This document shows positions 2,396 to 42,636 of a stretch of 64,000 nt of DNA, piece by piece. The notes under the pieces are model-generated. The model was not told the DNA's origin. It was given only the letters and a program-made list of their open reading frames with translations, and made no database searches. This DNA is from Nitrospirota bacterium (lineage in GTDB: Bacteria > Nitrospirota > Thermodesulfovibrionia > Thermodesulfovibrionales > UBA9159): contig JAMCQB010000049.1 of NCBI GenBank assembly GCA_023382175.1, forward strand, positions 2,888-66,887. The letters are read 5' to 3'. Each line of letters opens with the position of its first letter. Positions within the stretch are counted from its first letter, which is position 1. The translations under genes were made by a program, and so were the position numbers.

Positions 2396-3610
2396 ATGGA
2401 AATATTCTGGATATTTACAGGCATAACAATTCTCGGACTTGTCGGATATGGACTTCAGATATTCGCGGTCCGTTCCTATATTTCTCATCCCTCCCTCAAC
2501 TCCGGGGAAGGGGATTCCCTTCCCCGATCTTTTCCGCCGATCTCTATCCTCAAACCTCTCAAAGGGCTTGATGACAATCTATTTGATAATCTTGAAAGCT
2601 TCTGCATGCTGGATTATCCTGAGTATGAAATTATATTCTCACTTCAGGATTTCAATGACCCTGCATATAAAGTAGCACGAAAAATCAAGGATAAATATCC
2701 CGATAGAGATATTGCTATCGTTGTCGAACATTGCGAGGACGGATTGAACCCAAAGGTGAACAACCTGATCCCTGCTTACAGAGTTGCCAAGCACCAGCAC
2801 ATACTCATCAGCGACAGCAATGTCATGGTCGATAAATATTACCTCAGGGAGATATCAATGCCTATGAATGAGCAAGGAGTCGGACTCGTGAGTAACCTCA
2901 TCAAGGGAGTGGGAGGAAGGTCCATCGGCTCCATACTTGAAAACCTCCACATGAACTCCTTTGTCATGGGAAGCGTCTGCTTCCTTGACAAATTCCTTAA
3001 AATGCCCTGCGTTATCGGGAAATCCATGCTGATGAAGAAGAGAGACATCGAAGCCATCGGCGGACTGAAGGCATACAAGGATGTGCTTGCCGAAGACTAT
3101 ATGATAGGCAAGATGATGCAAGAAAGCGGCAAAAAGGTGGTCCTGTCAAGTTATGTGATAAACAACGTGAACCATTATTGGGGTATCATAAAATTCATAA
3201 ACAGACACACCAGATGGGGAAAGCTCAGATGGAAAATCGGGGGTATAAAATATCTTTCTGAATTGATTGGGAACACCGTATTCATGTCTGTGCTTCCGAT
3301 AATGCTCTGGGAACCGTCAAAAATCACCGTCTCTTTTGCGCTGCTTGTCGCCCTGCTAAAAGCTTCCGGCGATTTTTATATCGGCAGACGCGCTGCTTCG
3401 GACCTGAATCCCTTTTTCTATTTTCTTTCGCCGCTAAAAGACATCGTCATAGGACTCATCTGGTTTGTCCCTCTTGTAAGCAACACCGTCTTGTGGAGAG
3501 GCCATCGCTTTATCATAGAGAAAGATTCAGTCTTATTCCCCTGTCCGGAAAACGGCTTCTGGTCATGGAGATACCGCATAGCGAATGCCATAAGAGAACA
3601 CCTTGCTTGA
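2396..3610 (+). CDS. membrane glycosyltransferase, ceramide glucosyltransferase-like (GT2/GT21)
   Basis: 404 aa with an N-terminal TM segment. ISILKPLKG, DSN and EDY (D/ED motifs) plus the RHTRWGKLRW (QxxRW-like) motif and C-terminal TM segments match this family. An RBS (GGAGGAAGG) lies upstream. Confidence 0.65.
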   Translation: MEIFWIFTGITILGLVGYGLQIFAVRSYISHPSLNSGEGDSLPRSFPPISILKPLKGLDDNLFDNLESFCMLDYPEYEIIFSLQDFNDPAYKVARKIKDKYPDRDIAIVVEHCEDGLNPKVNNLIPAYRVAKHQHILISDSNVMVDKYYLREISMPMNEQGVGLVSNLIKGVGGRSIGSILENLHMNSFVMGSVCFLDKFLKMPCVIGKSMLMKKRDIEAIGGLKAYKDVLAEDYMIGKMMQESGKKVVLSSYVINNVNHYWGIIKFINRHTRWGKLRWKIGGIKYLSELIGNTVFMSVLPIMLWEPSKITVSFALLVALLKASGDFYIGRRAASDLNPFFYFLSPLKDIVIGLIWFVPLVSNTVLWRGHRFIIEKDSVLFPCPENGFWSWRYRIANAIREHLA

Positions 3611-18115: not shown

Positions 18116-19315
18116 TCAACCTTTCAACTCCCGTATTCTGTCTGTCAATTCCCAGGGCAGCCCTATATCCATTCTGCCCACATGTCCATATACTGCAAGC
18201 CTTCTGTAAAAACCGCCCTTAACAATGGAGGGCAGGTACCGCAGATTGAACTGTTTTATTATTCCCGCAAGTCGAAAGTCAAAATGCCTCTCAATGAGTT
18301 CTGCAATCTTCTCATCAGAGGTCTTCCCTGTGCCAAAGGTCTCTACCTGAACACTCACCGGCCTTGAAAGACCTATAGAATAGCTGAGATGTATCTCGCA
18401 TTCCTCTGCAAGCCCTGCTGCTACCACATTCTTTGCCGCATATCTGGCGGCATATGCGCCTATCCTGTCTATACGCATGGGGTCTTTTCCGCTCAGGGCA
18501 GAGCCGCTGTGCCGGGAATATTCTCCATAGGTGTCTATGGCATTCTTTCTCCCTGTTAAGCCTGAATGGACAGAAGGACCACCAACTATGAACGGCCCGT
18601 CGGGATTTATGAATATCCTCGTGTTTGTATCAGGTTTGATCTCCTCATCGGCGAATACAGGGTTTACAACAGCAGCCCTTATATCGTCATGCAGTTTCTT
18701 TAAATCAGGACCGCCTGATGCTAACGGTTTGTTCTGGCTCGCGATCACTGTAACACTGTGAATACTGTAAGGCCTGCCATCCCTGTATTCCACTCCTACC
18801 TGTGTTTTCCCGTCAGGTGCAAGATAGGGGAGTATCTTCTGGAGCCTGACAGAGGTCAGTTTTCTTGCAAGCCTGTGAGCGAGCCAGATGGGAAGGGGCA
18901 TAAAAGATGCGGTCTGGTTGCAGGCAAAGCCGAAGACAGTGACCTGATTCCTGACAGGGATATTATCCATCTCCTCCTCCGATAGCTCTCTCTCATCAAG
19001 GCAGCAATGCTCATCTGAAGGCAATTCCTTGAGGCTTGTTACAATGCTGCAGGTCTTGCCGTTAAAGGCATGCTGGTCATAGCCGATCTGGTTTATAACC
19101 TGTCTTGCTATATACGGGAAATCTACAATGGCATTGGATTCAAACCTTGCTGCTATAAAAACTATGGCTGTGGATACAGCACACTCAGCAATGACCCTTG
19201 AAAATGGGTCCTGCTGAAGGAAATGATCTACAAGGGCATCGCTTATCTGGTCACAGAGCTTGTCAGGGTGTCCTTCTGTTACAGATTCTGATATAAAAAT
19301 AAAGTCCTTTTTCAT
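18116..19315 (-). CDS. S-adenosylmethionine synthetase-like protein (divergent MetK paralog)
   Basis: The N-terminal SESVTEGHPDKLCDQISDA and GLTGRK..DTYG...SGKDP..DR.GAYAARY are clearly MetK-like. The GAGDQG signature region is replaced. Confidence 0.8.
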   Translation of the reverse strand: MKKDFIFISESVTEGHPDKLCDQISDALVDHFLQQDPFSRVIAECAVSTAIVFIAARFESNAIVDFPYIARQVINQIGYDQHAFNGKTCSIVTSLKELPSDEHCCLDERELSEEEMDNIPVRNQVTVFGFACNQTASFMPLPIWLAHRLARKLTSVRLQKILPYLAPDGKTQVGVEYRDGRPYSIHSVTVIASQNKPLASGGPDLKKLHDDIRAAVVNPVFADEEIKPDTNTRIFINPDGPFIVGGPSVHSGLTGRKNAIDTYGEYSRHSGSALSGKDPMRIDRIGAYAARYAAKNVVAAGLAEECEIHLSYSIGLSRPVSVQVETFGTGKTSDEKIAELIERHFDFRLAGIIKQFNLRYLPSIVKGGFYRRLAVYGHVGRMDIGLPWELTDRIRELKG

Positions 19316-19329
19316 TTAGCACCTCATTG

Positions 19330-19407
19330 CTTAAGGTTAAGGTTGAGGCTAAGGTTAAGAATTACAAATTTTTAATCTCTCTTAACCTAAACCTTAACCT
19401 CAACCTG
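19330..19407. repeat. hexamer-based palindrome (TTRAGG)n / (CCTYAA)n between the ATPase stop and the metK-like start
   Basis: ttaagg ttaagg ttgagg ctaagg ttaaga, then a loop, then tcttaacc taaacc ttaacc tcaacc. The right arm includes the ATPase stop codon. Confidence 0.6.
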
Positions 19408-22400
19408 TTCTTTTTGTGCCTTCATTCACTAACAATGGCATCACCGCACTGCCTCCAATCACAATACCATCGAGGATACCTATGGGAGCCAATCCCAAAA
19501 GATTTCGGAGCCCTGGTAGCGCCATGGCAAGAAGCTGTACGGCAAAGGAACCTCCGAGGGCGATATTGAGATATTTATTGGGCAGTAGTTTTTCCTTATC
19601 AAATATAGAATGCTTCTCGGAGCGGCAACTTATGGCGTGGAGAAGCTGACCTGCGGTAAGGCTCATAAAAGCCATGGCGCTTGCCTTCTGTCCCATACCG
19701 TATCTCATCACGCCATATCCATAGGCCCCCAGGGTCCCCGCGGAAATCACTGCGGATTCAAATGTGATTCTTTTGAAATCCGACGTCTTGACGATCAGTT
19801 CTTCAGGATCCCGTGGAGGCTGGCTCAGCACATCAGGTTCAGGGGGTTCGAGGGCAAGGGCAAGACCCGGCGCTATATCGGACATAAGGTTGATCCACAG
19901 CAGCTGTATCGCACTGAGAGGTTGACCGAGCCCCCCTGCAATAGCAGTGAACATAACCATGATCTCGCTCAGATTTGTCGACAGCAGGAAATGGACGGAT
20001 TTCCTGATGTTGTTATAGATGGTCCTTCCCTGGCTTATGGCGATGATCATCGTTGCGAGTTCATCGTCTTCGATGACAACGTCTGCGACTTCCCGGGCAA
20101 CATCGGTGCCCACATGTCCCATTGCGATGCCTATATCCGCTGCTTTGAGGGCAGGGCCGTCATTAATACCATCTCCCGTCATGGCCACAATCTTTCCCGC
20201 ACCCTGGAGCGCCTGAACTATCTGGAGCTTATGGGCAGGACTCACGCGCGAAAAAACATGCACCCTCTCGCAGAGCGCCTTCATCACTTCAGGGTCGATA
20301 CTGGCAAGGTGAGCGGAATCAAGGATCTCGAGTTGTTCGCCATTGCTGAGGTTCAATTCCTTTCCTATGGCATAGGCGGTCGGGCTCTGGTCGCCGGTTA
20401 TCATGACCGTCTCAATCCCTGCCCTGTGAAATTCCCCTATCAACCCCTTCACGCCTCCTCTGACCGGATCAGCCATTCCTACAAGACCCAGCCACACAAG
20501 ATTATCGCTGAAATCGACATCATTATTAAGAAACGCGCCCGGTTCACCATCACTGAGAGAGTACGCCACCCCAAGGACACGGAGAGCCTCCCCGGCCATA
20601 CGCTCATTTTCCGTCTCTATGGCGAGCCGGTCCTCATCGGTCAAGGGAATCTTCCTGCCATCCTTCATATGCCACCTGCACATCGACAGGACCTCGTTCG
20701 GGCTCCCCTTTACGGCAACAAGCGCGGAATGGTTGCCTGCGCGGTGAAGTGTATACATGTAGTTGCGGTTTTCAGAACGATGTTGAATGTTCACCAGGAG
20801 AAATTTTTCCCTGAGTCTTACCACATCGACCCCCGAACTCAATGCTATGTGGATCAGCGCATTCTCCGTAGGAGAACCGTTGACCGCATATTCACCATGC
20901 TGTCCGATCACTTCACTTTCATTGCAGAGAGCCGCTATGTGAATGAGTCTCAGGAGTTCATCGAAGAGATATACACTCGCCGGTTCACCGGACGCAAAAA
21001 ACTGCCCGTCGGATACAGTGAAGCGCCTCATCCCACTAAATGCCGTGACAACAGACATCCTGTTCAGGGTGATCGTTCCTGTTTTGTCGAGGCATATGGT
21101 GTGGATAGAGCCGAGGGTTTCGACCGCTTCGAGTCGCCGTATGAGGACGTTGTGCCTCCGCATATTTCTGATGCCCAGGGCTAAGGTTGTGGTCGCCACT
21201 GTCGGAAGTCCTTCGGGGACGGCGGCGATGGCAAGGGATATGGAGGTTTTGAGCATCTGTAAAAAACCGTATCCACGAAGAAGTCCCGTAACAAAGACCA
21301 GGCCGCAGACAGCGCCGCAGATCAATACCAGTTGGCTGCCCATCATGTCCAGTTGGCGCTCCATAGGGGTTTCAGGAGGTCTTGCTTCACCGACGAGGAT
21401 TTGTATCCTTCCGATCTCGGTAAACCTCCCTGTCGCAACGGCAACAGCAATCCCCTGTCCTCCGACAACAAGTGTCCCCATGTATACCATGTTCGTCCTG
21501 TCAGCGAGGGGGATGTTGTCCCTCTCACCCTCTCCCGCCAGGGGAGAGGGTTTATAAATTTGTTTCCCTCCCCCTTGATGGGGGAGGGTGAGGGAGGGGG
21601 TGGCTGTTGTTTTAACCACAGGCATACTCTCGCCGGTGAGTGCTGACTCATCGATGCTCAGGTGATTGGCTTCAATGAGCCTTGCGTCTGCCGCAACATA
21701 GCTGCCGGGCCTGAGCAGAAGGAGGTCTCCGGGCACTACGTTTTCTGCGCCTATCTCTTTCAGACGACCATCCCGCAGCACTATAGCAGAGGGTCTCACA
21801 AGATTCTTCAGCGAATGGATCGTTTTTTCGGTCTGGCTCTCGGTTGTGTAACCGATGGCGGCATTGATGAGGACTACGCCCATGATCACCACCGCATCTG
21901 CAAGACCGCCGGTGAGGAGCGAAATGCCCGCAGCAGCTCCCAGGAGGGCGACAGGAAGGGATTTGAACTGGTTGATGAACATACTCAGCCCTGAACGCGG
22001 AACAGATTCAGGAAGGACATTCGGACCGTATTTTTTGAGATGTGCCCCGGCGAGGTCGCCGGATAAGCCCGAATCTTTCGACGTGCCGAGAGATTGGAGA
22101 ACCTCGGTCGCCTCAGCAAGATGCCACGGCTCGACTCTCTGGTCCTCGGACCGGATAATGCTTTTCCTTAATTTTCTCCTGCTTCTGAGCTCTCCGCGTT
22201 CCGGGGTCAGGACTTCGCCTGGCCTTGCTTTTTCCGGAAGCGGGTTGTGGACCTTTGCATGTCGAACTTCTTTCCCGGAGCCTGCTGCCACCCCTGGAAC
22301 GGGTAATGAAAAACAAGATGACTGCCTTCCGGCATTTTTTTTGTGAGCTTCGACAACGTCCGCAATGAGCAGGGCTATTGAATGGTGGGGGTTGTCTGAA

Positions 22401-22570
22401 TTAAAGAAAACAAGCACACTCCCGGTCAAAGAGTTTACCGAGAATTTCAGTATCTCTTTATGAGACGACAGACCCCCCTCTATCTCTCTCTTGAGCCTCT
22501 CAGAGCGGTATAGCCCATCTACCTTAAATCGCGCCCTGCCTTTTACAGCAGCATGTATGGGCCGAACCAC
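19400..22570 (-). CDS. P2-type cation-translocating P-type ATPase with N-terminal HMA2-type domain
   Basis: TGES, PEGLP, DKTGTIT, MITGDQ and GDGINDGPALK motifs. The TM5/TM6 motifs STNLSEI and INLMSD resemble SERCA-like Ca-site residues. The N-terminal KGRARFKV...N.LTGSVLVFF is an HMA2-type domain. Confidence 0.9.
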   Translation of the reverse strand: MVRPIHAAVKGRARFKVDGLYRSERLKREIEGGLSSHKEILKFSVNSLTGSVLVFFNSDNPHHSIALLIADVVEAHKKNAGRQSSCFSLPVPGVAAGSGKEVRHAKVHNPLPEKARPGEVLTPERGELRSRRKLRKSIIRSEDQRVEPWHLAEATEVLQSLGTSKDSGLSGDLAGAHLKKYGPNVLPESVPRSGLSMFINQFKSLPVALLGAAAGISLLTGGLADAVVIMGVVLINAAIGYTTESQTEKTIHSLKNLVRPSAIVLRDGRLKEIGAENVVPGDLLLLRPGSYVAADARLIEANHLSIDESALTGESMPVVKTTATPSLTLPHQGGGKQIYKPSPLAGEGERDNIPLADRTNMVYMGTLVVGGQGIAVAVATGRFTEIGRIQILVGEARPPETPMERQLDMMGSQLVLICGAVCGLVFVTGLLRGYGFLQMLKTSISLAIAAVPEGLPTVATTTLALGIRNMRRHNVLIRRLEAVETLGSIHTICLDKTGTITLNRMSVVTAFSGMRRFTVSDGQFFASGEPASVYLFDELLRLIHIAALCNESEVIGQHGEYAVNGSPTENALIHIALSSGVDVVRLREKFLLVNIQHRSENRNYMYTLHRAGNHSALVAVKGSPNEVLSMCRWHMKDGRKIPLTDEDRLAIETENERMAGEALRVLGVAYSLSDGEPGAFLNNDVDFSDNLVWLGLVGMADPVRGGVKGLIGEFHRAGIETVMITGDQSPTAYAIGKELNLSNGEQLEILDSAHLASIDPEVMKALCERVHVFSRVSPAHKLQIVQALQGAGKIVAMTGDGINDGPALKAADIGIAMGHVGTDVAREVADVVIEDDELATMIIAISQGRTIYNNIRKSVHFLLSTNLSEIMVMFTAIAGGLGQPLSAIQLLWINLMSDIAPGLALALEPPEPDVLSQPPRDPEELIVKTSDFKRITFESAVISAGTLGAYGYGVMRYGMGQKASAMAFMSLTAGQLLHAISCRSEKHSIFDKEKLLPNKYLNIALGGSFAVQLLAMALPGLRNLLGLAPIGILDGIVIGGSAVMPLLVNEGTKRTG
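21519..21600. repeat. double-hairpin GC-rich palindromic element inserted in frame in the ATPase gene
   Basis: CCCTCTCCC-gccag-GGGAGAGGG (21528-21550) and CCCTCCCCC-ttgat-GGGGGAGGG (21566-21588). It is translated as ...LTLPHQGGGKQIYKPSPLAGEGERD... Confidence 0.65.
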
Positions 22571-22585
22571 ACCTTTTATCCCTTT

Positions 22586-23266
22586 TTACCCTTCGTTCTC
22601 GGGGTTTTTTTCTGATACGCCTGCTTTCGGAGCCGTTGCTTCTTTTCGAGCGCCTGTAACGGCTGGTCTCGGTTTCGGCAGGGCGGCGCCTGCAACCTCC
22701 TTCACTCCTTCAACAACCCCAACAAGCATATCCTTGACAGCCTTTACCGCGGTATTCCCTATAGTTCCGGCAGCCTCGATCGCCCCTCCCACAGCCACCT
22801 TTGCCACATCTTCCACATTCCCGCCGACTTCCTTGGTTGCTTCGATGACCCCGTCAACCGCCCTCCGCGCAACCATGGCAACATCAGCGCCTACCTCAGC
22901 AGCACCTTTGACTGCGCCCTTTACCGTCTGGCTGGCAACGGTCACGACATCTCCGCCGACATCGCTCACTCCCATGACGACACCCTTCGCAACGCTCTTT
23001 GTGCTTAAAATGAGGCCTGTGCCGACCTCTTCCGTCGCCTGAATCGCACCCTTTACCACGTCTCTTGTAATGGTAACTGCTTCATTGGCCACTGAACCAG
23101 TGGCTCTCAGAGTGTTGGAAACGGTATTCCTCACCAGGCTGACGATTTCAGCCTCGATCTCGTTGATGCCCTTGAGGCTGCTCACGACACCTTCTTTTAC
23201 TGCTGTTCCTGCCTTGCCGATTCCTTCGCCCATCGGGCTTTCCTCTATGACATGCTCATTAGACAT
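22586..23266 (-). CDS. tandem 22-residue repeat protein (about 7-8 repeats), unknown function
   Basis: The start is set at ATG 23266, behind GAGGAGG. The repeats are TRDVVKGAIQATEEVGTGLILS / TKSVAKGVVMGVSDVGGDVVTV / ASQTVKGAVKGAAEVGADVAMV / ARRAVDGVIEATKEVGGNVEDV / AKVAVGGAIEAAGTIGNTAVKA, and so on. Confidence 0.6.
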   Translation of the reverse strand: MSNEHVIEESPMGEGIGKAGTAVKEGVVSSLKGINEIEAEIVSLVRNTVSNTLRATGSVANEAVTITRDVVKGAIQATEEVGTGLILSTKSVAKGVVMGVSDVGGDVVTVASQTVKGAVKGAAEVGADVAMVARRAVDGVIEATKEVGGNVEDVAKVAVGGAIEAAGTIGNTAVKAVKDMLVGVVEGVKEVAGAALPKPRPAVTGARKEATAPKAGVSEKNPENEG

Positions 23267-23310
23267 GGGTAACCTCCTCTTTTTCACAAACGTGGGTAGC
23301 TGTTTATCAT

Positions 23311-23333
23311 AAAAACGGAAGGGAAATCCCTTC
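23311..23333 (-). terminator. possible weak terminator/attenuator between the HMA2-TM gene and the repeat-protein gene
   Basis: On the minus strand, GAAGGG-atTT-CCCTTC followed by CGTTTTTAT. Confidence 0.35.
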
Positions 23334-23346
23334 TTCCTCCAGACCG

Positions 23347-23829
23347 TTATGCTGCGACCCCGGCGCCTTGCCCTGACTTGAGGAATATGTTAAATGCGTA
23401 CCAGAAGGCGGCATACCATGGGAGCGCAGTAAGATTTCCTACGCTCATTTGGTATATTCCGGCGCCGAGGAGCAGGAGAAAAGCCAGCCCTCCGATGTCT
23501 ATCTCGCCCCCGGTAAGCGCCACAAGCTGAGTATTCATCCCTTTAAAGGTTTCCGATACCCGCTGCTGCAACCTTCTCGGAGAGGCGTTCAGTCCTTGAA
23601 GGCTGAAAAGATTACCGGCCATGGCGTATCCCGCAATTCTTTCACTATCCAGATCGTGCATCACGAGCAAACTGCCGGTTAAGGCATTGACTTCAACGGT
23701 CTTGATGCCTTCAAAACCGGAAAATCGTTCCTTCAAGCCTCCAAAAAATGCACGATCACCCTTTTTTGAAGGTATCCTGATCCTCAACCTTCCTCTGGTC
23801 CGATGGCTTATATAAGCGCGCGGGAGCAT
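23347..23829 (-). CDS. HMA2-type domain protein with C-terminal transmembrane segments
   Basis: The N-terminal H.TRGRLRIRIP...N.LTGSLLVMH motif and the C-terminal GGLAFLLLLGAGIY...ALPWYAAFWYAFNIFL. Its start overlaps the upstream stop (TAATG). Confidence 0.6.
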   Translation of the reverse strand: MLPRAYISHRTRGRLRIRIPSKKGDRAFFGGLKERFSGFEGIKTVEVNALTGSLLVMHDLDSERIAGYAMAGNLFSLQGLNASPRRLQQRVSETFKGMNTQLVALTGGEIDIGGLAFLLLLGAGIYQMSVGNLTALPWYAAFWYAFNIFLKSGQGAGVAA

Positions 23830-24119
23830 TAAGCGTTTGGTTCGCCTTCCGGCGCAACCGGGGCAGATGCGGCTTTTTCCGCCTCCGAGATCTCAGCTTT
23901 TACCTCGGCTACCAGGTCCTCAACCACCTCACCTACTTCAGCAAAAGTCTCCTTGCCTTTTTCAAAGAGGATAAGTCCTCCCTTTATCGCTGCCTTTGCC
24001 ACCGGTTTTGCCACACCTGCAATAACGGGGAGCACGGCAGGAGCAAGGACAGCCGCCCCTATGCCAATAGCAAGCCCTGTCACAACATTTCCCTTCAGGA
24101 CATCATCAAAAAGTCCCAT
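23829..24119 (-). CDS. DUF5132-like small membrane protein
   Basis: MGLFDDVLKGNVVTGLAIGIGAAVLAPAVLPVIAGVAKPVAKAAIKGGLILFEKG followed by an acidic tail. This matches my recollection of DUF5132 proteins, which are often adjacent to HMA2/P-type ATPase genes. Confidence 0.55.
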   Translation of the reverse strand: MGLFDDVLKGNVVTGLAIGIGAAVLAPAVLPVIAGVAKPVAKAAIKGGLILFEKGKETFAEVGEVVEDLVAEVKAEISEAEKAASAPVAPEGEPNA

Positions 24120-40038: not shown

Positions 40039-42636
40039 GTGACCTTGGAAGAGAGATACAACCCGCAGAGTGTTGAACTGAAGTGGCAGAAATACTGGGC
40101 TGAGAAGGGACTTTACCGGACCGATATGGATGCTGCCAGGGAAAAATTCTATTGTCTCGAGATGTTTCCCTATCCCTCCGGAAAGATCCATATGGGACAT
40201 GTGCGCAATTATGCCATCGGGGATGTCATCGCGAGGTGGAAGAGCATGCGCGGATACAACGTGCTCCATCCCATGGGGTGGGATGCCTTCGGCCTTCCTG
40301 CGGAAAACGCGGCCATAAAACAGGGAGTGCACCCCGCCCAATGGACGTACGAGAATATCGGCTACATGAAACAGCAGTTACAGCGTATGGGGCTCAGCTA
40401 TGACTGGGACAGGGAGGTAGCCACCTGCAGCCCTGAGTATTACCGGTGGAACCAGTGGTTTTTCCTGAAGATGCTCGAAAGGAACCTGGCGTACAAAAGA
40501 TCGTCATTTGTGAACTGGTGCCAATCGTGCACAACGGTCCTGGCCAATGAACAGGTAATTAACGGAAAATGCTGGAGGTGTGACAGCGAGGTGATCCAGA
40601 AGGAGCTGGAACAGTGGTTCTTCAGGATCACCCATTATGCCGAGGAACTCCTTGAAGGATGTGAAAAGCTCACCGGATGGCCTGAGAATGTGGTGGCAAT
40701 GCAGAAAAACTGGATCGGCAAGAGTGAGGGGGTGGAGATGGATTTCTCCGTTGACGGACAGGAGGAAAAGATACGGATCTTCACCACACGGCCTGATACC
40801 CTCTGGGGCGCAACCTTTGTCTGCATTGCGCCGGGACATTTCCTTTCAGAAAAGCTCGTCGCCGACAAGGAAAAACTGAATGCAGTGAAGGCGAAATATG
40901 GGGAAATGGAAGAGAAAGAGGGTTTGTTTACCGGTCATTATGCCGTTAACCCCATGAATAACGAAAAGATTCCGATCTATGTGGCGAATTTTGTCCTGAT
41001 GGAATACGGTACCGGCGCCATCATGTCCGTCCCTGCCCATGACCAGCGGGACTTCGAGTTTGCAAAAAAATATAACCTTCCTATTCGGGTTGTGATCGCG
41101 CCGGAGAATGACGCTGGGAATGGGAGAAGCGGTGAAACGGTGAAGTCTCCGGGTCTCCGGGTCTCCGGGTCTCCGGGTCATTCTCTCACCGAGGCATATG
41201 AAGGAGAGGGCATTCTCGTGAATTCCGGGAAATTCAACGGCATGAGGAGCGAAGTGGCGAAGAAAGAGATCGGAATATTCATTGAAGAGAAGGGGCTCGG
41301 CAGGAGGGTGATCAATTACAAGCTTCGGGACTGGGGCATCTCTCGCCAGAGGTACTGGGGAACGCCGATTCCCGTAGTTTATTGCAGGAAATGCGGCATC
41401 GTCCCTGTGGATGATAAAGACCTTCCCGTGGTACTTCCTGAAGATGTGAAGTTCACCGGCAAGGGAGGTTCCCCCCTCCTTGATTCAGAAGACTTTCTGA
41501 GAACCGGATGTCCCCGGTGCGGCGGAGAAGCGAGGCGTGAGACCGATACCATGGACACCTTTGTGGATTCCTCCTGGTATTTTTTGCGGTACTGTTCGAA
41601 AAAAGACGAAGATGCCCTGGACAAAGACAATATCGCATACTGGATGCCGGTGGATCAGTACATAGGGGGCGTTGAACACGCAGTTCTCCACCTCCTCTAC
41701 TCCCGGTTCTTCACCCGGGTGATACGGGATATCGGCATTCTTGATTTCGATGAGCCCTTCACGAATCTTCTCACCCAGGGGATGGTATGCATGGAGACCC
41801 TCAAATGCCCCGAGCACGGATGGCTTTTCCCGGAGGAGGCGAAGGATGAAAAGTGTGTGCAGTGTGGCAGGGAGATAGCCAGGGGCAGGGTCGAAAAGAT
41901 GTCGAAATCGAAAAAAAATGTGGTGGACCCGGACCATCTCATCGACCGATACGGAGCTGACACATCCCGGCTGTTTTCCCTTTTTGCGGCGCCCCCTGAA
42001 AAGGACCTGGAATGGGCGGATAAGGGAGTTGAGGGGGCTTACAGGTTCCTGAACAGGATGTGGGGTATTGTGTATAAAAACCGTGACGTGTTACGCGTAA
42101 TGCGTGACAGGTTGGAATACACGGACTCATCACGTGTCACGGATCACGCATTACGGTTGTTACGGAAGACCCATCAAACCATAAAGCGGGTGAGCACGGA
42201 TATCGAAAGGGAGTATCATTTCAATACCGCCATTGCTGGCCTCATGGAGCTGGTGAATGAACTCTCGGCCTTTCAACCCCAGAGTGATGAGGATCGTGCA
42301 GTCTTGAAGCATTCCATCGAGACGGCCCTTTTGCTCCTCTCTCCTTTTTCCCCTCACATCGCAGAAGAGTTATGGGAGGCTATGGGCAATGAACCGAGCA
42401 TATTCGGTCAGAAGTGGCCGCAATGGGATGAAGAGACCGCGAGGGAAGAGGAGATAGAGCTTGTTATTCAGGTAAACGGAAAGGTGAGGTCAAAGGTGAT
42501 GGTCCCTCATGGCCTCGCGGATGAGGAGATAAAGCAGAGGACCATGAACGAGCCGAGGATTAAAGAGATCCTCGGGGACAAAACCATCAGGAAGATTTTT
42601 GTCGTCAAAGGCAAACTCGTAAATATCGTAATGTAG
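40039..42636 (+). CDS. leuS: leucine--tRNA ligase
   Basis: The HMGH (HIGH-class) and KMSKS motifs in a full-length 865-aa protein. GTG start lies behind GAAGGAG. Confidence 0.97.
41145..41179. repeat. 8-bp tandem repeat (GTCTCCGG x 4.4) inside the leuS coding sequence
   Basis: Four perfect tandem units at 41145-41176 plus a partial unit. They are translated as [13 protein letters not shown]. Confidence 0.8.
42081..42165. repeat. CGTAATGCGTGA-type palindromic element inside the leuS coding sequence
   Basis: The arms ccgtgacgtgttacgcgtaatgcgtgaca and tgtcacggatcacgcattacggttgttacgg share cgtaatgcgtga. It is related to the intergenic copy at 61103-61195. Confidence 0.6.

Follow-up and report, generated by a model that had tools for sequence, protein, structure and literature searches.

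The results of this analysis indicate that the window, by which we mean the whole stretch of 64,000 nt analysed here (positions 2,888 to 66,887 of contig JAMCQB010000049.1 from a Nitrospirota bacterium), carries a known kind of bacterial repeat in a new setting. The element is an inverted ('palindromic') pair of motifs of the BoxC/PIT/TMECO type, whose sequence suggests a capacity to form intrastrand triplexes. It lies in frame within a P-type ATPase gene in Nitrospirota, where it appears to have been carried by recombination at a hypervariable loop. We consider it likely that the pair is a tolerated passenger in this ATPase loop and that it was copied in by recombination from another ATPase allele. 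The host gene, the inserted segment and the parts of the element are as follows.

19400..22570, minus strand: P2-type SPCA/SERCA-like cation ATPase gene hosting the insert, 1056 aa, with an N-terminal HMA_2 domain.
21521..21601, minus strand: in-frame inserted segment, codons T324-R350, 27 aa, peptide TPSLTLPHQGGGKQIYKPSPLAGEGER.
21528-21550, plus-strand reading: hairpin 1, CCCTCTCCC-GCCAG-GGGAGAGGG, perfect 9-bp stem and 5-nt loop.
21551..21565: AT-rich linker of 15 nt between the inverted motifs, TTTATAAATTTGTTT.
21566-21588, plus-strand reading: hairpin 2, CCCTCCCCC-TTGAT-GGGGGAGGG, perfect 9-bp stem and 5-nt loop.
21566..21600, plus (template) strand: complete triplex motif in the TMECO layout, CCCTCNCCC-N3-6-GGGNGAGGG-N3 followed by a second 9-nt G stem, made up of the C stem (21566-21574), loop TTGAT, G stem (21580-21588), loop TGA (21589-21591) and third strand GGGAGGGGG (21592-21600).
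21518..21550, minus strand (coding-strand reading): second, inverted motif, made up of the C stem, loop CTGGC, G stem GGGAGAGGG and a degraded third strand.

The translated open reading frame (ORF) contains the motifs TGES, DKTGT and TGDGIND intact, and these, together with E1-E2/Hydrolase/Cation_ATPase domains (Pfam matches E1-E2_ATPase, Hydrolase and Cation_ATPase_N/C), place the ATPase in the P2-type (SPCA/SERCA-like) class. The protein is a 100% match to MCL4475342.1 from a Nitrospirota metagenome-assembled genome (MAG), and human SPCA1 is its top homologue of solved structure (E = 1e-39). A sequence-only reading of the window had described two adjacent perfect hairpins with 9-bp stems and 5-nt loops joined by an AT-rich linker, within a reading frame that stays open between TGES and the NMVYMGT segment; the hairpins, the linker and the open frame were all found in the sequence and its translation, and the stem of hairpin 1 is actually 10 bp long (21527-21551). 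The insert lies 9 residues past TGES and directly ahead of a conserved IPLADR motif, and the tryptic peptides expected from the region bearing it are TTATPSLTLPHQGGGK and QIYKPSPLAGEGER.

The mirror third strand after hairpin 2 is a feature absent from that earlier reading. The third strand GGGAGGGGG mirrors the G stem at 9/9 positions (1% for random genomic 20-mers), and the complete half (21566-21600) written as an oligonucleotide is 5'-CCCTCCCCCTTGATGGGGGAGGGTGAGGGAGGGGG-3'. At the other end of the element, the degraded third strand (21518-21527) has a mirror score of 5/9 in the window, while the same right-half strand scores 9/9 in L001, a distant ATPase allele described below. When the 64 kb were searched for CCCTCYCCC-N5-GGGRGAGGG with up to 2 mismatches, just these two sites were found; 0.01 were expected by shuffling, and 0/100 shuffles gave two matches.

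These features identify the family. BoxC/PIT/TMECO repeats have been described by Bachellier et al. in the 1990s, Hoyne and Maher (2000) and Holder et al. (2015; PMC4666352), and the last study defines the TMECO pattern as 5'-CCCTCNCCC-N3-6-GGGNGAGGG-N3-GGGNGAGGG, reports purine-motif triplex formation in vitro, and counts 3610 copies in 262 proteobacterial genomes and related G/C-rich motifs in cyanobacteria. In that study, all 23 copies in Escherichia coli K-12 are intergenic, inverted pairs are a frequent arrangement, and the motif is unlinked to known mobile elements. The genome paper of Enterobacter sp. 638 reports 100 copies of the hairpin. Both window hairpins fit the hairpin part of the pattern exactly, and the element has in common with the family the stems CCCTCNCCC and GGGNGAGGG, a first loop of 5 nt, a second loop of 3 nt, a third G strand mirroring the G stem, and inverted pairing around a short spacer. 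Each half is built from a 9-bp hairpin, a 3-nt loop and a mirror-image G-rich strand, and on single-stranded DNA this G-rich strand could fold back to complete a class II purine-motif triplex.

A scan for double hairpins in one genome per species of GTDB gave at least 120 loci with 131 pairs. The listed loci belong to Alpha-, Beta- and Gammaproteobacteria (including several Enterobacter species), Cyanobacteria, Chloroflexota, Planctomycetota, Acidobacteriota, Bacteroidota, Nitrospirota and others, and the listed copies have in common the wider architecture CCCCTCACCC-nnn-[hairpin]-linker-[hairpin]-nnn-GGGTGAGGGG. Mirror third strands of at least 8/9 were present on both sides in 66 of the 131 listed pairs and on one side in 38, compared with 1% for random genomic 20-mers; the L001 allele has 9/9 on both sides. 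The linker lengths of these 131 pairs fill the searched range of 8-25 nt. In the complete pairs, conservation ends 1-2 nt past the third strands, and 60 of 63 have no flush direct repeat, that is, no target-site duplication; none was visible at the ATPase site either. An Enterobacter pair retrieved with this pattern has matches in 5393 of 5426 E. coli genomes, with a median of 15 places each. Over 44 nt, the right half of the L001 element aligns at 84% with the wcaA-wzc spacer of E. coli, a match present in 1696 genomes of this species, and this spacer holds a textbook inverted TMECO pair with the architecture of the window element. An E. coli match annotated as 'wzc' was considered as an in-frame copy and rejected, the gene overlap being 1 nt; it sits in the wcaA-wzc spacer. 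No match was obtained with an exact linker-specific 25-mer in a metagenome scan or with a degenerate 33-mer including the linker in a viral scan, and the general pair pattern gave 7 matches among 2.9 million viral contigs. Head-to-tail tandem arrays of triplex motifs with a 46-nt period, as distinct from inverted pairs, were also observed, especially in a Planctomycetota MAG (L093 4305-4500; also L044 3195-3332, L011 and L013), and gene callers derive small spurious proteins from them (P0138-P0142).

The element forms strong secondary structure, with folding energies calculated from Watson-Crick pairing alone of -26.5 kcal/mol (z = -5.4) for a 96-nt stretch as DNA and -57 kcal/mol (z = -5.4) for the mRNA strand of the element; in their inverted orientation, the two palindromic units can pair into one long hairpin. 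The very stable mRNA structure, along with a T-rich stretch after hairpin 1 on the antisense strand, would suit a regulator at the nucleic-acid level, in which the hairpins tune ATPase expression either through translation pausing or mRNA stability or, as DNA, through an antisense terminator or a barrier to replication or transcription. However, a terminator and promoter scan called nothing at the element, Rfam at gathering thresholds matched nothing there (a tRNA was its sole match), PIT/TMECO has neither promoter nor terminator activity in E. coli (PMC4666352), and the nearest orthologues are without the element. Such a regulatory role is thus very improbable.

The insertion was delimited by codon alignments of the insert site with the alleles L005, L006, L003, L001, L211 and L219. 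T324-R350 stands in place of 4 codons (P-I-S-E) of L005 and L006, a net addition of 69 nt (23 aa), and the alignment with human SPCA1 has a 22-residue gap exactly at the insert; both values fall within the 20-25 residues estimated previously. Since orthologues with 85-88% identity lack the segment, it is a true in-frame insertion. Among the best 120 ATPase relatives, aligned over the linker from TGES to NMVYMGT, the base linker length is kept in 40, including the closest insert-free proteins P0003-P0006 (85-88% identical). Nearly all of 80 listed metagenomic relatives, mostly of no more than 70% identity and used for the usual loop length only, span the 235-residue query stretch in 211-212 codons. 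A protein search with a 68-aa query gave 6 uninformative candidates, and the 33-aa insert peptide matched among representative proteins only small, probably spurious ORFs across repeat arrays, such as P0141 (ATPSLSLPHQGGG...SPSPLAGEGWGGG).

In an AlphaFold2 model (mean predicted local distance difference test score, pLDDT, 73), residues 325-357 are coil with pLDDT below 50 between two strands of the actuator (A) domain. The insert is thus predicted to be an exposed, Pro/Gly-rich disordered loop in the A domain, at a position that presumably matches the exposed SERCA A-domain loop upstream of Arg198/Val200. The translated insert would be a 27-residue Pro/Gly-rich disordered loop tolerated by the pump, and we infer that it is probably a neutral passenger and not a working part of the enzyme. 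It might instead have been selected as a Pro/Gly-rich loop that alters A-domain movement or pump interactions; the insert adjoins the IPLADR motif, which we take to be the positional counterpart of the SERCA A-domain loop around Arg198/Val200, and many relatives have an extra segment of some kind at this site. These site inserts, however, have no sequence relationship to one another and vary in length between 3 and 30 residues, and 40 of the 120 relatives, including the closest clade, have none. Besides, it is DNA palindromes and not peptide motifs that are conserved, the segment is predicted to be disordered, and partial loss of the element is under way in the window copy. An adaptive origin of the insertion is thus quite improbable.

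The site also holds palindromes of another kind. Of the 120 relatives, 55 have another insert at this site, either whole or trimmed to a remnant (e.g. LELRV...TPNSEL). At the DNA level, this other insert is a long interrupted hairpin of heptamer repeats, (NAGAGTT)n ... (AACTCNN)n, and its shorter forms, for example LEFRVMS, represent what persists of the left arm. A second hypervariable loop of the ATPase lies directly before L(I/V)WLGLVGMADP, and its length varies from 34 to 63 residues among the 120 relatives. The palindromes located at the two loops are listed below; P0023 has a GC-rich hairpin at the second loop.

L003 2168-2245, L004, L207 1886-1985 and L208 1937-2020: heptamer palindrome at the same codon position as the window element, in frame, (NAGAGTT)4-5 ... 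(AACTCNN)4-5.
L207 about 2954-3050 and L208 about 3000-3080: heptamer palindrome in the second loop, in frame.
L221 3574-3687: GC-rich hairpin CCTCCCAGCCCCCCTTT-GGA-AAAGGGGGGTGAGGGGGG in the second loop, in frame.

From this recurrence of palindromes at both loops, the ATPase family appears to have two permissive hypervariable loops that repeatedly collect structure-forming palindromes.

Evidence that the element arrived by recombination was obtained from two comparisons, which involve the following features.

21599..21634, minus strand: co-travelling 5' flank of 36 nt, codons G313-T324.
21434..21646, minus strand: approximate recombinant tract around the insert, codons about 309-379, diverging from L003.

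The first comparison is with the ATPase of L001 and L002 (P0016), which has only 69.6% DNA identity to the window gene, yet the element occupies the corresponding codon position in it, with a 73-nt core that is 100% identical between the two. In the 36-nt flank, the window and L001 differ at 3 of 36 positions, as against 61 of 189 just upstream; L001 and its sister L211 differ at 12 of 36 and 23 of 189, respectively. In L001, the element stands in place of a remnant of the other palindrome that is still present in L211. The second comparison is with L003 (P0002), a sister allele ca. 96% identical to the window gene that has a different palindromic insert at the same site. The divergence between the two is 18.8% in the 144 flanking nt and 3.8% elsewhere in the gene (Fisher p = 6e-11). 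Because the 73-nt core is shared at 70% identity and L003 has a different palindrome, the loop is considered a hot spot of both recombination and insertion. In a neighbour-joining tree, an insert-free clade encloses the window allele and P0002, while P0016 falls inside the B-type clade, whose ancestral state is the other insert type. Only 2 of ca. 136 ATPase clusters carry the element, and a full-length search with P0016 found no additional ATPase with it. Comparison of these alleles suggests that, most likely, a short tract with the element moved by gene conversion between ATPase alleles. Homologous recombination (gene conversion) would have brought in, from another ATPase allele, a tract of ca. 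200 nt with the element, and the element with its 36-nt flank would also have been copied into an ATPase only 70% identical. A second mosaic tract was observed at the 3' end of the ATPase gene (window about 19400-19650, codons about 975-1056), where the identity to the alleles L003 and L219 is 63-85%, compared with 96-99% otherwise.

Several observations weigh against a passenger that was moved by allelic recombination. The flank homology available for recombination between genes of 70% identity is short, and the identity of the core across lineages 30% apart could alternatively reflect selection or very recent spread. Triplex formation was undetected in E. coli in vivo (PMC4666352). There is no further copy in the stretches sampled, namely the 64-kb window, 20 kb of L001's genome and ca. 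433 kb of related loci; the element is single-copy in these stretches.

Another explanation of the same data is a site-directed insertion, homing-like or structure-targeted, in which BoxC-type and other palindromes would be placed specifically at this ATPase site by a trans-acting enzyme or after a break at a hairpin already there, and the co-transferred flank would be a co-conversion tract of break repair. Such insertion would be in line with the identical element being found at one and the same codon position of two backbones ca. 30% divergent, next to a short flank co-converted on a single side. It would also be in line with the presence of two unrelated palindrome families at one site, one of which displaced the other in L001, and with the lack of target-site duplication in the complete pairs. 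However, no candidate nuclease or transposase was seen, a crude search for Y1-transposase motifs over 1.1 Mb being empty, and the flanks of copies elsewhere have no common target beyond 1-2 nt. Moreover, just 2 of the ca. 136 ATPase clusters have the element, and ordinary recombination with selection for permissive loops explains the data. We consider site-directed insertion unlikely, and the same applies to the broader proposal that BoxC/TMECO palindromes propagate by a homing-like process of break and copy that drags a short flank along, with the ATPase loop as a landing pad. If this proposal were true, structure-forming elements would displace each other at the landing pad and cross between lineages ca. 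30% divergent, and the family would supply proteins across phyla with Pro/Gly-rich loop insertions.

The authenticity and the state of the window copy were evaluated using independent assemblies. The window-type allele occurs in three of them (MCL4475342.1, MCL5423104.1 and L219, which is Logan SRR28401836) and the L001 element in two, and the element is thus real sequence. L219 is ca. 99% identical to the window gene and has the right third strand intact, GGGAGAGGG-CAA-GGGTGAGGG; relative to it, the window has lost 6 nt (GGCAAG) in frame and has one G-to-A change. Owing to these two changes, the peptide at the third strand is GEGERD in the window compared with GEGKGEGD in L219 (P0123), and L001 has a third variant, GEGEGEGD, at the same peptide site. 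The window copy thus appears to be eroding, which fits the local sequence instability with which TMECO is associated and the small deletions found within palindromic pairs in E. coli (PMC4666352). We infer that DNA structure causes this instability. At residues 381-388, P0122 (MCL5423104.1) has GPRSGSPL compared with GRFTEIGR in the window, with both flanks identical; this difference is suggestive of a compensated frameshift or an assembly error.

The hypervariability of the site and the indels between GAGGG repeats would be expected if the element had arisen on the spot by slippage or template switching, or if it were an assembly chimera. Against this, the same 73 nt are found in a distant orthologue, the element is present in five independent assemblies, and a family known from E. 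coli and many phyla has the same architecture, mirror third strands included. A local origin or a chimera is thus hardly credible; local template switching and assembly artefact are effectively refuted by the distant 73-nt copy, the mirror strands, the L219 allele and the wcaA-wzc pair.

To evaluate in-frame residence in other genes, the 131 listed GTDB pairs were screened for an open frame with Pfam domains on both sides. At least six BoxC/TMECO pairs lie within real, unrelated genes, all at linkers or loops, and no report of coding BoxC/TMECO copies was found in the open-access papers searched.

L067 5832-5892, Magnetospirillum sp. UT-4: CobN, clean 28-residue insertion between residues 769 and 771 of PDB 9uk9.
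L091 1197-1255, Methylococcaceae MAG: bacteriophytochrome, inside a 79-residue insertion.
L021 5080-5137, Caldilinea: DEAD/MrfA-type helicase.
L115 3533-3588, Gallionellales: Type ISP restriction enzyme.
L090 1846-1915, Gammaproteobacteria MAG: two-domain ABC ATPase, between the two domains.
L052 6929-6994, Arenimonas: lipoyl-E3 protein, in a linker.

The window element differs from the BoxC/TMECO copies described so far in several respects. It is in frame within a gene, unlike the intergenic K-12 copies, and its host is a Nitrospirota MAG, compared with the 262 proteobacterial genomes of the TMECO study. It is also apparently single-copy in the sampled 64 kb, one of its third strands is degraded, and its spread here would have been by allelic recombination. 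The small deletions inside palindromic pairs, the lack of target-site duplication and, as far as the crude motif search over 1.1 Mb extends, the lack of a linked transposase are shared with the family.

The earlier reading had likened the element to the palindromic elements of Rickettsia (RPEs; Ogata et al. 2000, as described in PMC10969869). The comparison is valid as behaviour, because the family is dispersed in many genomes and occurs in frame in other genes. As in the RPE account, a palindromic repeat has been inserted in frame into a housekeeping gene, at a point that the fold can accommodate, and encodes a surface peptide without destroying the protein; this is shared behaviour and not membership. 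RPE membership was rejected, since the architecture assigns the element to BoxC/PIT/TMECO and its host belongs to Nitrospirota. By its architecture, the element belongs to a sequence family unrelated to RPEs, which have lengths of ca. 100-150 nt against ca. 80 nt here; the window element has triplex-type mirror arms, the host phylum differs, and coding insertions by the dozen in one genome were not observed. The suggestion of an invasion by a palindromic element likewise stands insofar as a dispersed repeat family exists in many genomes, and the arrival at this site was likely by allelic recombination rather than by fresh transposition.

Other families of small repeats were also compared. REP/BIME/REPIN elements (RAYT, Y1 transposases) resemble the window element in having two short GC-rich inverted palindromic units and no target-site duplication; the window element, however, has no GTAG/CTAC end motif, and a mirror strand is not a REP feature. 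A crude search for the Y1-transposase (RAYT) motif HxH ... Y..NP found none in the 1.1 Mb of window and loci, which are from incomplete genomes. ERIC/RU, RUP and NEMIS/Correia elements (Delihas 2007, PMC2759123) are small intergenic repeats with open frames and occasional in-frame gene fusions, and in this respect are similar. They differ in being MITE-like (resembling miniature inverted-repeat transposable elements), with terminal inverted repeats and mostly target duplications, and in belonging to other families and hosts. Classification as a MITE was rejected, target-site duplication being missing both in 60 of 63 complete pairs and at the ATPase site.

In the genes surrounding the ATPase (window 22586-24119 and 18116-19315), a neighbourhood conserved in L001, L005, L006 and L219 was observed, which comprises small HMA_2-domain proteins, a DUF5132 protein, a protein of ca. 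230 aa, the ATPase and S-adenosylmethionine synthetase. The ca. 230-aa protein has no Pfam match. The ATPase itself has a disordered linker at residues 81-128, beside its own N-terminal HMA_2 domain. The sole tandem array within the window is a perfect repeat of the 8-nt unit GTCTCCGG (x 4.4) at 41145-41179.

BoxC/PIT/TMECO repeats are among the most widely conserved small bacterial repeats, and have been described as intergenic, with no known function or mechanism of spread. The open frames found here show that the motif can reside in genes and suggest that it is translated there, and coding residence is recurrent, in unrelated proteins and phyla and always at linkers or loops. An allele bearing the element can pass between divergent lineages with a short flank. 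With its empty, BoxC-type, heptamer-palindrome and fresh 6-nt-deletion alleles, the ATPase locus offers polymorphic material on repeat movement and DNA destabilisation. For annotation, peptides such as PSPLAGEG or LPHQGGG in otherwise conserved proteins are to be read as repeat-derived.

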